From positions 23,622-87,621 of IMG/VR virus record IMGVR_UViG_3300028534_000020: a stretch of DNA of 64,000 bases, one strand, 5' to 3'. The first letter of the stretch is position 1, and every line of letters starts with the position of its first letter. Source of the stretch: a virus. The notes below the pieces were generated by a model. That model did not search any database and had not been told where the DNA came from. It saw only the letters and a list, made by a program, of their open reading frames with translations. Shown here in pieces: positions 51,605 through 63,671 of the stretch. The position numbers and the translations under genes are program-made.

Positions 51605-52141
51605 TTAAGCCCAATTAAAATTTAGTTCGATATTTTTTATTGAATTTGTAGATTGAGCGAGCTCTTCAACGTTATCACACTCAGATATATTTTGTGTATC
51701 AGCTGATTTTAAACGCTGTAAAAAAATACCAATATATGACTGAGGTTCAATAGTACCTATAAGAATCTCGTTTTGTTGCGAAGTAATATCATTAAATTCT
51801 GCATAATAAGGTAAATCACGCTGAGTTTTCAACTCTTCAAAAATCGGTGCGCCACAACTTGATATATTTGGCGTAACAATTGCTGCTAATAGTTTATAAC
51901 CTTCTGGCACATTCGCATATAACGTAACATCTTGTAATTGCGTATCTGTTATATTTTTTGCAGCTATACAGATTATTTCATTTTCGTTCTTTACTTTTGT
52001 GTAATAAGAAATATCTCGAAACAAATTATTTTTACGGCCATTTGGAATTTGTGTACCTGATATATAACCGCCAAGTGATTTATGGATTTCTTTCTGTTCT
52101 GCACCATTTTCAAGTGCACCCGTGTAATATAATTTTATCAT
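51605..52141 (-). CDS. putative virion structural protein
   Basis: LYYTGA...SLGGYIS...IPN...NLF.DIS start resembles phage structural proteins (from recollection only). Confidence 0.4.
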   Translation of the reverse strand: MIKLYYTGALENGAEQKEIHKSLGGYISGTQIPNGRKNNLFRDISYYTKVKNENEIICIAAKNITDTQLQDVTLYANVPEGYKLLAAIVTPNISSCGAPIFEELKTQRDLPYYAEFNDITSQQNEILIGTIEPQSYIGIFLQRLKSADTQNISECDNVEELAQSTNSIKNIELNFNWA

Positions 52142-52533
52142 TTGTCAATTAGTTTATAAGTCGTGAATGTTATTATAGCAACACTAAAGCCAAATATAAA
52201 ATATTTTGTTTTAATTACTATTAAATTAGTTTGCCGTTGAGGTACTGCAATTTTTTTAATAAGTAATTGATTTTCAAGTTTTAATTCAGCTATTTGTTTC
52301 GTTCTATTCAATAGCATAGTGTCTTTTACAGCGACACGAAATTCACAGCTATCAAGTAAAACTCGCTGTTGAGTATTGATACTATCAAGTCGTTTGTAAT
52401 TAAGCTTATAAAACGCTAATTTTTTTGCTGTTTCAACATTAACGCATAACGTATCACTCTTTTTCGAGGATTGCCCGTAAACTGTCTTTGCTAATACCAG
52501 GGTTAACAGGAATAACAGGGTGATTTTTTTCAT
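52138..52533 (-). CDS. spanin-like protein (signal peptide, coiled coil, C-terminal TM)
   Basis: Topology; 80-bp overlap with the upstream TM/coiled-coil gene. Confidence 0.5.
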   Translation of the reverse strand: MKKITLLFLLTLVLAKTVYGQSSKKSDTLCVNVETAKKLAFYKLNYKRLDSINTQQRVLLDSCEFRVAVKDTMLLNRTKQIAELKLENQLLIKKIAVPQRQTNLIVIKTKYFIFGFSVAIITFTTYKLIDK

Positions 52534-52789
52534 AATCTTTTAATTTTCTGCGCAGTCTTTTATATTCAACACTTAAAATACTATCTTGCTTTTTACGCAA
52601 ATCAAAATCTTGTTTAAGACCATCATAACGTTTTAACGACTCATTATATAACGAATCTAAACGTTGAATTTTTTCTTTATTGATTTTATCAATTTCTCTT
52701 GATAATTTATAATTTGTAAAAAGTAAACCACCAAGAATTGCTACAAATATGCCAAACGAGACATATATAGCGATATTTTTAATAGTCAT
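52454..52789 (-). CDS. i-spanin-like protein
   Basis: N-terminal TM plus coiled coil, directly after the putative endolysin. Confidence 0.55.
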   Translation of the reverse strand: MTIKNIAIYVSFGIFVAILGGLLFTNYKLSREIDKINKEKIQRLDSLYNESLKRYDGLKQDFDLRKKQDSILSVEYKRLRRKLKDYEKNHPVIPVNPGISKDSLRAILEKE

Positions 52790-53213
52790 TGATAATTTCT
52801 ATTGTAGTTTCTTTTAAGCCTTTTAAGACGCGCTCAAAATCAGCTGTAGTACGCGTAGAACTTGTAACATCATAATATCCATCTTTATTCAAATCTTTAA
52901 GACGAATGCCTGGCGCTACACAACCGTTTAATTGAGTCCAAAAATTTGCAGGATGAATGCGTATTCCACTTCTATTGGGTACCTCATCTATAAGCCAAAC
53001 AAAACGTTTAAACTTTGGTGACCAAGTAAATCTTAACGGATAAATACCTTCTGGTATATTCGATACGTTTCTTTGATTATGACGTTCGCCACGTTCAATA
53101 CACATCGAACCAAAAACAGGTTGACCTGTATTATTGTCAATAATCAACAATATACCAGTCGACTGATTTTTATCAGCCCACTGTCTTTTAAGCTTGACTG
53201 ATAGATTTTTCAT
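52779..53213 (-). CDS. DUF5675-family putative endolysin
   Basis: STGIL...CIE...IPEGIY...VPNRSGIRIHPAN...LNGCVAPG. Confidence 0.75.
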   Translation of the reverse strand: MKNLSVKLKRQWADKNQSTGILLIIDNNTGQPVFGSMCIERGERHNQRNVSNIPEGIYPLRFTWSPKFKRFVWLIDEVPNRSGIRIHPANFWTQLNGCVAPGIRLKDLNKDGYYDVTSSTRTTADFERVLKGLKETTIEIINDY

Positions 53214-53562
53214 CTTGTTGTTTTTTTACTGGCTTAATTCTCAAAATAAAATCTTTACCTTCGCGCTCTTTTGTAAAATGACGCATCGTTGTTACAATAT
53301 TCCACGCTATCAACGAAATTATAAACCAACCAGAATTTTGTATCATATAAAAATTCATAAACGTCTCAAAATCTGCCAAATTGTATACCCATATAATAAA
53401 TGACGTATATGTCACTAAATATAAAATGATAATTGATACGTGTGCAGACGCGTGGTCTTCTGTTAATGCGCCATTATCGTGAATAAGTTCTTTTAGCTCT
53501 TTAACAGCTAAAAAGAATGAATACGCATAAAATAACAGACTTAAAATTGCGATTAGTTTCAT
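53188..53562 (-). CDS. multi-TM protein, holin/antiholin candidate
   Basis: Three hydrophobic segments inside the lysis cassette. Confidence 0.5.
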   Translation of the reverse strand: MKLIAILSLLFYAYSFFLAVKELKELIHDNGALTEDHASAHVSIIILYLVTYTSFIIWVYNLADFETFMNFYMIQNSGWFIISLIAWNIVTTMRHFTKEREGKDFILRIKPVKKQQDEKSISQA

Positions 53563-53912
53563 ATTTGTTTATTTTTTTTTAGCAAATTTGCAATTGAACT
53601 ACCAAGTGTGTCATTTTTCAATAAAAACACTATAATACTATACGCAAACACAGTTGTTAATAACATAATAAATATTCGCGTATCAGTTTCAAAAAGTTCT
53701 GGATAAAAGTGTTTAACGCCGAACGAAGCACCCCAGCCCGTTACAGATGACGAAATTAAATTAGAAATTATTGGGTAAACTTTCTTTTCTATTTTTTTCG
53801 CTTCAATCATAGCAGCAACGAATACAATACCAAATACAAAATATATAGGTAAATCTGCGAAAACAGCTAAACTTCCAGTTGTTACAGCCAAATAAATATT
53901 TAATTTACTCAT
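53559..53912 (-). CDS. multi-TM protein, holin candidate
   Basis: Three to four hydrophobic segments. Confidence 0.5.
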   Translation of the reverse strand: MSKLNIYLAVTTGSLAVFADLPIYFVFGIVFVAAMIEAKKIEKKVYPIISNLISSSVTGWGASFGVKHFYPELFETDTRIFIMLLTTVFAYSIIVFLLKNDTLGSSIANLLKKNKQI

Positions 53913-53928
53913 AGTTAATTGCGTTTAT

Positions 53929-54282
53929 TTACAATAAAATTAAATCAATTTTCAAAATATCATCATATTTTAATGCATTTTGCAATTGAGCATAATCTAC
54001 AACGTACTCACTTCCGTTATAATCAAAGGCGCAAGATTTACCATTCACTTTAATACACGTTATTTTTTGTTTACCTCTAAATAGTAAAAGAACCTTATTA
54101 TTATCCCAATCCCATTTTACACCAATAAAATTGATTATTTGGCCAGTGTCGAGATTTATATTTTGTAACCACGAGCCACAATTTATGCGTAAAATATTAT
54201 CTTGTGTGTCTACTACTATATGATAATATTTACGTTTTTTAAAGCTTTTACAGTACTTTTTTAATTTTTTTAATAGTTTCAT
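53929..54282 (-). CDS. hypothetical protein
   Basis: ORF immediately after the ncRNA-like island. Confidence 0.55.
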   Translation of the reverse strand: MKLLKKLKKYCKSFKKRKYYHIVVDTQDNILRINCGSWLQNINLDTGQIINFIGVKWDWDNNKVLLLFRGKQKITCIKVNGKSCAFDYNGSEYVVDYAQLQNALKYDDILKIDLILL

Positions 54283-54309
54283 TATTTGAGTTATTAAGTT
54301 GTTCTAAAA

Positions 54310-54553
54310 TAAAAATCGAGGCTCTTCTCGTCGCGTCCGGCGAGCGTCTATGCCTCGAATTTAGCTCCAACCTGCGTCCAGGCCTTCACAGCTAAAAGCA
54401 TTACACAAAACACGTAAGTGTCTATTTCACTCCCCTATTTCAGGGTTCTTTTCAACGCATCTTCCAACTTTGGCTTTCACGCACAATGGCAGACGAATTC
54501 CACGCCTTCTACGCTGGAAGCGCGACTTACGCATTAAGCGTAATGCAAGGGTT
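54310..54553 (-). ncRNA. putative structured non-coding RNA ending in a terminator hairpin
   Basis: About 49% GC by hand count (118/240 for 54311-54550). Arms 54525-54546 and 54398-54419 pair (G.U only on minus). Further hairpins and TCGAGGC/GCCTCGA followed by a T run. Confidence 0.7.
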
Positions 54554-54718
54554 GCGTAATTGGGTATCTTTGCGAGATTCCCACGCGAGAAGTCAATCAC
54601 GGCTAATCGCGTAATTGGGTATCTTTGCGAGATTCCCACACTGCCAGCCTATCAGAACTAACAGTGTAATTGGGTATCTTTGTGAGATTCCCACGCAAAA
54701 TTTGTCAATGAACTAATT
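54554..54718. repeat. three 55-bp units: 33-bp hairpin repeat plus 22-bp semi-conserved linker (CRISPR-like mini-array)
   Basis: GYGTAATTGGGTATCTTTGYGAGATTCCCACRC at 54554, 54609 and 54664; exact 55-bp period. Confidence 0.95.
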
Positions 54719-55822
54719 TATAATTTTATAAGTTATAAATTTTGAATAACCATCTTTATTTTTATATCCAAGCATTTTTACTTTTGCTAAATATTTTGAA
54801 ACATACGTTATAGCGCCTTGTTTGTATAATTTAATTTTAAACGCTAAATTTACATAACCAACTTGAGGTGAATGAGGCGTTATACGACCTCTCGATGAAC
54901 CATTTGGCACACCTTTTGGAGATGGATAATGATTATCTTTAAACCAAAGTTCAGGTTCAATATCAATCCAAGTGCAAATATCTTTTATTTCAAAATGCGT
55001 TTTTCGTCCATATAAATCACCATATTTAAGTTCACGATAACCAGCAACGCGTTTATTACGCGCCTCTGGACCTTTATACGCTGCGTGTCTATATCTATCA
55101 ACTACAACTTCTACTTTATCGACAAAATCAAATAAATCATCTACATTATTAAGACACACTCTTAAAAGTTTTGCTAAACCATTACCACTATCAATTGCTT
55201 TTACATAATTTACGTGTGGCACATCGTGTTGCTGATAATTATCACTTGTTAATTTATCTGACCAAGATACACTAAATGCATTTTGTAAAACAATGTCAAG
55301 TACATTTAATTCTTGAGATTTAAGAAAATCTTTTAATGAACTATTTCCAGTAACATTATGCGCCTTACGGTTGAATGAATAAGCTATATCATAATCAACT
55401 AACATAGAGTCAGTAGTTTGCTGTTTTGAAATTGTAGCAAAATCATCATAATCATATTGTGTTCCGCCTTGACCATAATTACCAGCATCAGTTGGCGTAA
55501 ATAAATATACAGCTTCACTTAAAACATTGTCATCTGAGTCTTTATTTGACTCGAAAAATAAATGAACTTCGCCTTCGTTGACTACAAATTGTTCCTGATT
55601 ATCTACAAATTCTTTAAGCGTAATTTGTAAAATATGATACACTTTATTAAAAGAAGCTACAGCGCCAGAATTTGAAGTATTTAACGCTTGCCATTCTTGT
55701 GCGCCAAAATTATACACTTTATGTACTTTTTCACGCTCATCAAACCATAACATTATTTTCGTCACTGGTGGATTGACGCCTGAGTGTATCGCTTTTACTA
55801 AACCTAAATTAAAAGTCGCCAT
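54713..55822 (-). CDS. tail-associated protein (fibre/accessory)
   Basis: N-terminus MATFNLGLVKAIHSGVNPP...LWFD resembles phage fibre starts; follows the tail genes. Confidence 0.45.
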   Translation of the reverse strand: MATFNLGLVKAIHSGVNPPVTKIMLWFDEREKVHKVYNFGAQEWQALNTSNSGAVASFNKVYHILQITLKEFVDNQEQFVVNEGEVHLFFESNKDSDDNVLSEAVYLFTPTDAGNYGQGGTQYDYDDFATISKQQTTDSMLVDYDIAYSFNRKAHNVTGNSSLKDFLKSQELNVLDIVLQNAFSVSWSDKLTSDNYQQHDVPHVNYVKAIDSGNGLAKLLRVCLNNVDDLFDFVDKVEVVVDRYRHAAYKGPEARNKRVAGYRELKYGDLYGRKTHFEIKDICTWIDIEPELWFKDNHYPSPKGVPNGSSRGRITPHSPQVGYVNLAFKIKLYKQGAITYVSKYLAKVKMLGYKNKDGYSKFITYKIIN

Positions 55823-55823
55823 A

Positions 55824-56381
55824 TTAAGTAGTTTGTGCTTTAACTGTTATATATTGATAATTTGTGTCTGTTTTTGGAATCTCATACTCTGTATCATCAA
55901 TTTTAAAACGAAACGCTTCTGATATAGCAGTAGGGAATACATTAAATTGTAATGTATATTCTGCTAAATTTGTTGTTATTTGTCCTACATTATTTGTCGT
56001 ACCAAATTTTTTCCACTCGCCATTTAATAAAAATTGAACCTCTTTATTAGCTTGACTATCAAACTCAATTATATACATAAAAGTAGGGACTTTTACATTA
56101 TATAATACACGCACTTTTTTTTCAATTTTCCAATCGCGAATATTCATATATTCTATGAGTTCAGCATCTGTGACAGTACTTAAAATAGAAATTGGCGATG
56201 CTTCAATTGTAGCATACAAATTCGTTAAATTAAATCTACCTTCACTTATTAACTTTTGAATTAAAGCATCAAGCTCTTTGTTAATAAGAGCTTGGCGGTC
56301 TTCGTGCGATAATAATTCCCAGTTAATAACTTTTAATGCTTCTTCGATTGTAAAATCAATATTGGGACAAGTTTCTGCCAT
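55824..56381 (-). CDS. putative tail protein
   Basis: Position in the tail module. Confidence 0.45.
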   Translation of the reverse strand: MAETCPNIDFTIEEALKVINWELLSHEDRQALINKELDALIQKLISEGRFNLTNLYATIEASPISILSTVTDAELIEYMNIRDWKIEKKVRVLYNVKVPTFMYIIEFDSQANKEVQFLLNGEWKKFGTTNNVGQITTNLAEYTLQFNVFPTAISEAFRFKIDDTEYEIPKTDTNYQYITVKAQTT

Positions 56382-63662: not shown

Positions 63663-63671
63663 CAAATATAC
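63663..63671 (-). promoter_or_regulatory. TAnnTTTG promoter, near-leaderless
   Basis: Minus strand TATATTTG-TAAT-ATG. Confidence 0.55.

Follow-up and report, generated by a model that had tools for sequence, protein, structure and literature searches.

Bacterial mRNAs that imitate rRNA sites let spare ribosomal proteins switch off their own operons. The S10 leader of E. coli is one case: uL4 acts there by NusA-dependent attenuation and mimicry of rRNA, and the mRNA element, believed to copy the uL4 site of 23S rRNA, is followed by a terminator-type helix and a U run and controls the genes downstream (PMC10931766). The likeness of this leader to 23S rRNA is a loose, structural one, it precedes the gene of uL4 itself, and it is limited to some Gammaproteobacteria. 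The B. subtilis infC leader, as outlined in one report (PMC1865079), also carries a mimic of an rRNA site, the protein-bound form of which favours termination, but there the protein is bL20, the rRNA site is a different one, and the control is cellular autoregulation. In 23S rRNA of E. coli, nt 281–359 (the H18/H19/H20 junction) are bound by uL4 and uL24 only and are the primary site of both (PMC6426284), while H16–20 contact H24, and H24 is bound by uL24 (PMC6367999).

The element described here lies in a 90.6-kb IMG/VR phage contig (31% GC, with nearly all genes on the minus strand), of which a stretch of 64,000 nt, referred to as the window, was analysed. Judged from its sequence, the core of the element combines an imitation of the H18/H19/H20 junction with one of H24, both enclosed by a new closing helix. 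Imitation of 23S rRNA, a helix followed by a U run, and control of downstream genes, the last of which is proposed here for the phage element, are all shared with the S10 leader. In contrast to that leader, the phage element is a near-literal copy, includes H24, and stands before phage genes. It also departs from autogenous control, where the operon encodes the binding protein, in that the genes on its flanks are tail-fibre, capsid and lysis genes of phages. An account of such an element was found neither in Rfam 15 nor in the papers that could be searched.

Results

A structured RNA island

The island fills the largest non-coding gap of the window (54283–54712, 430 nt, 45% GC), and its GC content of 0.46–0.49, compared to about 0.30 in the surroundings, agrees with the contrast pointed out in the initial annotation. 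The entire gap folds with a z-score of −5.7, and its 149-nt core reaches −52.3 kcal/mol (z −4.9) on the minus strand but only −34.7 kcal/mol (z −2.6) on the plus strand. A long-range pairing had been proposed between two 22-nt arms (54398–54419 and 54525–54546); these are 77% Watson–Crick complementary, with three extra G.U pairs exclusive to the minus strand. The CCCT-GAAAT-AGGG, TTTAGCT...AGCTAAA and TCGAGGC...GCCTCGA hairpins, the last with its T run, were likewise recovered in the sequence and fold, as was the repeat array (three 33-nt repeats with a 55-nt period, matched in 0 of 100 shuffles). The GC-rich island is a real structured RNA, and its features and immediate neighbours are collected in Table 1.

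Table 1. Features of the RNA island and adjoining genes, in window coordinates.
Feature	Coordinates	Strand	Basis or detail
Upstream ORF, 369 aa, orphan, final gene of the baseplate/tail-fibre cluster; TAG stop within the first linker	54713–55822	−	ORF and homology scans
Tandem array of three 55-nt units, each composed of a half-diverged linker (22 nt) and a hairpin repeat (33 nt)	54554–54718	−	Repeats at 54664–54696, 54609–54641 and 54554–54586
Core structured RNA, predicted mini-mimic of 23S domain I (H18–H20 junction plus H24) with a 9+11-bp closing helix	54398–54546	−	Fold z, homologues found with model R1, covariation
Part common to all members, 127 model positions; inner closing helix 54525–54535 / 54409–54419	54409–54535	−	cmsearch
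P3 helix, 54513–54524 with 54456–54468, around two hairpins; three-way junction like 23S H18/H19/H20	54456–54524	−	Covariation, R2 alignment
Hairpin A, AGGCG-UGGAAUU-CGUCU, putative H19 mimic with invariant UGGAA loop; then GCCAUUGU (23S: GCCAUAGA)	54491–54507	−	Covariation, 23S comparison
Hairpin B, GC-GUGAAA-GC, H20-like (23S: GGUGAUAGCC)	54473–54482	−	Manual parse
23S-like segment: junction UGAAAAGAA, H24-like hairpin CCCU-GAAAU-AGGG (54433–54445), junction GAGUGAAAUAGA	54421–54454	−	BLAST, family invariance
Extra hairpin UUUAGCU...CCUG-GACG-CAGG...AGCUAAA, after the UUUU run 3' of the closing helix	54360–54396	−	−14.2 kcal/mol, z −2.6
Long irregular hairpin, stem 54352–54358 / 54316–54322, then U run; terminator-like	54306–54358	−	−18.1 kcal/mol
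First downstream ORF, 117 aa, orphan; then putative lysis cassette 52138–53912	53929–54282	−	Homology searches

Searches for known families gave no assignment. Rfam 15, the check that had been suggested for the island, returned no family at the gathering score or at E 10 for the 64-kb, 1-kb or 441-nt sequences, only chance matches to snoRNAs and sRNAs, and a scan for tRNA and tmRNA was negative. Homologues of the whole island were absent at the DNA level from cultured phages and plasmids, its repeat pattern had no homologue in IMG/VR, and the 70-aa ORF at 54427–54639, the coding alternative raised earlier, is without relatives in IMG/VR. A diversity-generating retroelement was rejected, as the phage genome has no second copy and no reverse transcriptase turned up. 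One 25-nt match, to a Bacteroidales genome, falls antisense within a coding gene and was set down to chance.

Likeness to 23S rRNA

When the island was compared by BLAST with 401 Bacteroidota genomes, 13 gave matches, always with the segment 54421–54454 and often in several copies, at 91–94% identity over 34 nt (E about 1e-6 per genome). All targets were 23S rRNA genes. The site matched is in domain I, where the junction UGAAAAGAA is followed by helix 24, a 4-bp hairpin, and then by the strand AGUGAAAUAGA, immediately before the 3' strand of the domain-closing helix. A homologous element in another phage contig (L037, see below) matches not only this segment but also H19–H20, and the two matches are collinear.

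A covariance model built from the phage elements alone (R2) was aligned to true 23S rRNA. It fell on the H19 loop, GCCAUAGA, H24 and both junction strands, with an insertion of 133 nt between the two parts (E 9e-7 in 701 nt). The 23S equivalents of the first part are H19 (loop UGGAAA), GCCAUAGA and H20 (GGUGAUAGCC), all within H18, the P3 region of the phage element being the part that R2 places on H19–H20; the second part is H24 and its flanks. Since a model derived only from phages aligns at these two parts with a long insertion between them, the element is a fusion that brings together two regions lying far apart in domain I.

The likeness to domain I (E. coli nt 281–359 plus helix 24) extends to the UGGAA hairpin loop, the GCCAU junction and the GUGAnAG hairpin, and then to UGAAAAGAA, a 4–5-bp hairpin and GAGUGAAAUAGA, in the same order. 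There are also differences. The phage element is outside any rRNA gene, it lacks the approximately 130 nt between the two parts (H21–H23 and the return strands of H3/H4), it has unrelated helices in place of H18 and of the domain-closing helix H2, and it has U where 23S rRNA has G before UGAAAAG. It is not an LSU rRNA gene or gene fragment, as only two short segments are alike and these are joined differently, and the bacterial LSU rRNA model (Rfam RF02541) gave no match even at E 10. What the element does have in common with rRNA-mimicking operators is a resemblance to the rRNA site of a protein, its unpaired strands being identical to those of H19, H24 and the junctions of 23S rRNA. The four TGAAA motifs listed in the initial annotation are indeed present, and they are 23S-like loop and junction strands, a likeness that had been missed. 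The broader reading of the annotation, a structured functional RNA, is supported, but it did not see that two segments of 23S domain I are copied here, and it is because of this copying that a likely partner and mechanism can be put forward.

Homologues and covariation

A scan of IMG/VR for the 23S-like motif picked up two genuine 23S genes along with L035 and L037, both of them intergenic elements in phage contigs. L056 came from a further motif scan with covariance-model filtering, in which 44 of the 47 loci were chance matches. Under the motifs scanned, the family thus comprises four contigs in 2.9 million. With a model made from the window sequence alone and a manually drawn structure (R1), full-length matches were obtained to L035 (54.7 bits), L056 (51 bits) and L037 (28.3 bits), while the scores of the common part in the window itself were 164.6 bits (R1) and 135.5 bits (R2). 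The phages of L035 and L056 are related, their endolysin-like proteins being 84% identical; the window phage, L035 and L037 have essentially no proteins in common.

In all four elements the parts follow one order: the closing helix, P3 around a hairpin with a UGGAAnn loop, a GCC(A/G) junction and a GUGAnAG hairpin, then UUGAAA(A)GAAC, a 4–5-bp hairpin, GGAGUGAAAUAGA and the return strand of the closing helix. In the alignment of the four sequences, which was fitted by the model and so favours the structure, 91.7% of cells are paired and 27 of 34 pairs are altered on both sides. None of 500 shuffles reached the observed value, and sliding the partners by 1–3 columns gave 35–47%. Pairs altered on both sides make up 8 of 11 in the inner closing helix, 10 of 12 in P3 and 5 of 5 in hairpin A (100% of cells paired), whereas hairpin B, with 67% of cells, is the weakly supported pairing. 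Invariance shows the reverse distribution, with 4 of 68 paired columns unchanged across the four elements compared to 33 of 59 unpaired ones, and the invariant strands are those of 23S rRNA: the UGGAA loop of H19, UUGAAA(A)GAAC and GGAGUGAAAUAGA. At the level of sequence comparison, the structure and the identity of the unpaired strands with 23S rRNA are shown to be kept in four phage elements from three lineages.

The earlier proposal of a functional RNA read from the minus strand is strengthened by these helices, kept by compensatory changes in three other phage contigs. Two of its inner pairings, CGCGCTTC/GAAGGCGTG and CGTCT/AGATG, have to be revised, as the homologues favour other partners, namely CGCG-CUUCCAGC with GUUGGAAG-A-UGCG, and AGGCG with CGUCU.

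The pattern specific to the mimic was found in none of the 401 Bacteroidota genomes, R2 under stricter filters matched none of 101, and no cultured phage matched L035 or L037. A match in Pseudoalteromonas phage Slicky01 lacks the GAGUGAAAUAGA strand and was rejected as chance.

In L035 (5773–5866, minus) and L056 (28–133, plus), an additional domain of about 90–100 nt separates the major head gene from the rRNA mimic; it is closed by CCCGUG...CACGGGG and has an inner hairpin with a GAAA-type loop. In both, a 97-aa open frame runs antisense to the RNA element (L035 5622–5915, plus; L056 36–329, minus). It is probably an artefact of GC-rich, structured sequence, because the window has only a 42-aa frame there.

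Parts found in this phage only

The three hairpin units upstream of the core are absent from L035, L056 and L037. The 55-nt units are 71–78% alike, but unevenly so: the 33-nt hairpin is almost unchanged while the 22-nt linkers are about half alike, with TTAG in common, and this difference argues that the repeat hairpin is under selection. The hairpin has no rRNA match above chance, and a loose likeness of GGGAAUCU-CGCAA-AGAUACCC to helix 7 of 23S rRNA in some Bacteroidota (GGGGAUCU-GCACACA-AGAU...UCC) was discarded, as it was estimated to be at chance level. The two hairpins downstream of the core have no counterpart in the other three members either. A simple terminator scan made no call at 54306–54358, because of the long loop. 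The three upstream units and two downstream hairpins are probably elements for processing, stability or additional termination; extra protein sites or a true terminator are likewise possible.

Genomic context

Each of the four elements occupies an intergenic position on the sense strand. A start codon follows the closing helix after 25 nt in L035, 22 nt in L056 and 13 nt in L037, but in the window the next ORF is 115 nt away, beyond the two additional hairpins. A U run after the closing helix is present in the window, L056 and L037, and absent in L035 despite its relative L056 having one.

Lysis-type genes are downstream of three of the four elements. The L035 and L056 elements are preceded by the major head gene and followed by genes for hol-like, endolysin-like and lipoprotein products, whereas that of L037 precedes a 66-aa Cys-rich ORF in the head-morphogenesis region and has no adjacent lysis genes. 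In the window, the genes beyond the 117-aa ORF encode two small membrane proteins, a DUF5675 protein (52779–53213), an ORF with a transmembrane segment and coiled coil, and an ORF with a signal peptide. DUF5675 has been grouped structurally with C82 peptidases and is a lysin candidate (2026 preprint). Because of its membrane proteins, the DUF5675 grouping and the signal-peptide and transmembrane ORFs, this set looks like a lysis cassette. The DUF5675-neighbour records L002 and L003 belong to unrelated phages and do not carry the RNA.

Upstream of the island are a baseplate J gene, a 790-aa tail fibre and two orphan ORFs of 185 and 369 aa. These two orphans and the 117-aa ORF have no homologue among 5.8 billion proteins; the 117-aa ORF also gave no PADLOC, Pfam or PHROG match, its AlphaFold model is of unusable quality (pLDDT 40), and its Atlas matches were uninformative. 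A 4-kb block (52138–56381), from the 185-aa ORF to a 131-aa ORF and including the RNA island, is absent from all four syntenic relatives, which were chosen by terminase (46–61% identity); one metagenome relative was too short.

A promoter-like box, GTATATTTG, occurs eleven times on the minus strand (at 1673, 6402, 11052, 14815, 22294, 25043, 33037, 41472, 47544, 51586 and 63671), often within a longer shared cassette, AAAAGTATATAGTGTATATTTG, and presumably corresponds to the Bacteroidota −7 element TAnnTTTG. The boxes look like they split the phage genome into transcription units, and since copies at 63671 and 51586 flank the island, it would belong to a unit of 12 kb. No promoter of the phage's usual type directly precedes the RNA in the window.

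Two other genes of this phage may be mentioned. On the minus strand outside the window (L025, genome 15339–17294) is a 651-aa ORF with weak intein-splicing and DUF559/MTES_1575 endonuclease-like matches, of which DUF559 alone passes the Pfam cut-off, possibly representing a phage gene interrupted by an intein or a homing endonuclease. At the contig end (L027 1451–3442, genome 88651–90642), a 663-aa protein with Peptidase_M23 and OmpA-like domains is probably a tail-associated lysin.

Discussion

We put at somewhat under one half (about 0.45) the probability that the core is a miniature copy of the uL4/uL24 site, bound by a host protein and acting in cis as a leader. A cis-acting leader is favoured because placement before start codons is typical of ribosomal-protein operators. 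No match to ribosomal L4 or L24 was present in three phage records, so any partner would be the host's, and we infer that free host uL4 and/or uL24 bind the core. The partner could instead be uL22, uL29 or an assembly factor. Binding of free uL4 and/or uL24 would stabilise the closing helix, and the stabilised helix would either increase termination at the U run that follows or block initiation at the start codon; expression of the downstream (lysis) genes would then track the host pool of unassembled ribosomal protein. Several observations count against a leader or attenuator of this kind. A multi-branched domain would be an unusual terminator, L037 has no lysis neighbours, L035 has no U run, and the ORF in the window is at a distance of 115 nt.

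The main rival to the cis-acting leader is a role in trans: cut from the late transcript, the rRNA mimic would serve as a free decoy or sponge and titrate uL4/uL24 or another reader of the site. Assembly of new 50S subunits, or host feedback on ribosomal-protein operons, would be disturbed as a consequence. The evidence from mimicry and covariation is equal for the two, the 20-bp closing stem appears to resemble an RNase III-type processing stem, and the window RNA ends at its own terminator-like hairpin, short of the next ORF. On the other hand, in three of the four members the element is 13–25 nt ahead of a start codon and has no terminator of its own, a usual promoter is missing before the window element, and a single copy per genome would face thousands of nascent rRNAs. 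A decoy is considered possible but less likely than a leader.

It is improbable that the element is just a piece of host rRNA that was captured, binds no protein, and is kept only because its stable intercistronic fold shields or punctuates the mRNA. Its position between operon segments, a close likeness to rRNA over about 34 nt only, and the rarity of the family would suit such an origin, but the same fusion of two distant rRNA segments has been kept by three unrelated phage lineages, and a generic stabiliser would have no need of unpaired 23S strands that stay invariant next to freely changing helices.

Two further explanations take the upstream hairpins as the main feature, and both are very unlikely. 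In one, they form a CRISPR-like or guide-RNA array, an RNA anti-CRISPR mimic or the repeat RNA of a type III toxin–antitoxin system, with the structured part as a scaffold or tracr-like partner. Three 33-nt hairpin repeats with 22-nt linkers invite this comparison, and the order of repeats, terminator and small ORF recalls ToxIN-type loci. However, the half-conserved linkers with their shared TTAG are not independent spacers and have no target as guides in the phage genome, the structured part contains no anti-repeat, the repeat core never forms an array in 185,579 genomes (10 single, chance-level matches), the array is missing from the other three family members, and no Cas, reverse transcriptase, transposase or defence protein was found among the approximately 60 ORFs scanned. 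A CRISPR array or RNA anti-CRISPR repeat mimic was rejected, neither identity to a host repeat, unrelated spacers, nor cas or an anti-repeat having been found. The other explanation, in which the repeats are operators, iterons or packaging signals at the DNA level and the RNA fold is incidental, could apply to the repeats alone, each of which holds an imperfect palindrome (GGGTATCT-N5-AGATTCCC) at a regular 55-bp spacing, but RNA is favoured by the G.U pairs and by how strongly folding differs between the strands, the RNA helices are kept by compensatory changes in homologues that have no repeats, and a skew inflection is absent.

Compared to the rRNA imitations of bacterial mRNAs, the phage element is predicted to follow the uL4/uL24 site, the starting point of large-subunit assembly, far more literally; it joins two distant pieces of rRNA and mostly stands before lysis genes. 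This suggests that the phages carrying it may sense or soak up spare ribosomal protein. If a cis-acting leader is assumed, it could be speculated, tentatively, that the composite copy of the uL4/uL24 nucleation site is a sensor by which Bacteroidota phages time lysis according to the state of the host ribosome factory; unassembled ribosomal protein, rising once rRNA synthesis stops, would then set entry into the lysis cassette through termination or translation. If these proteins do bind, the element would be a compact, natural RNA displaying the uL4/uL24 platform outside the ribosome, of use in studies of assembly, and would represent a new viral route to read or disturb ribosome biogenesis.
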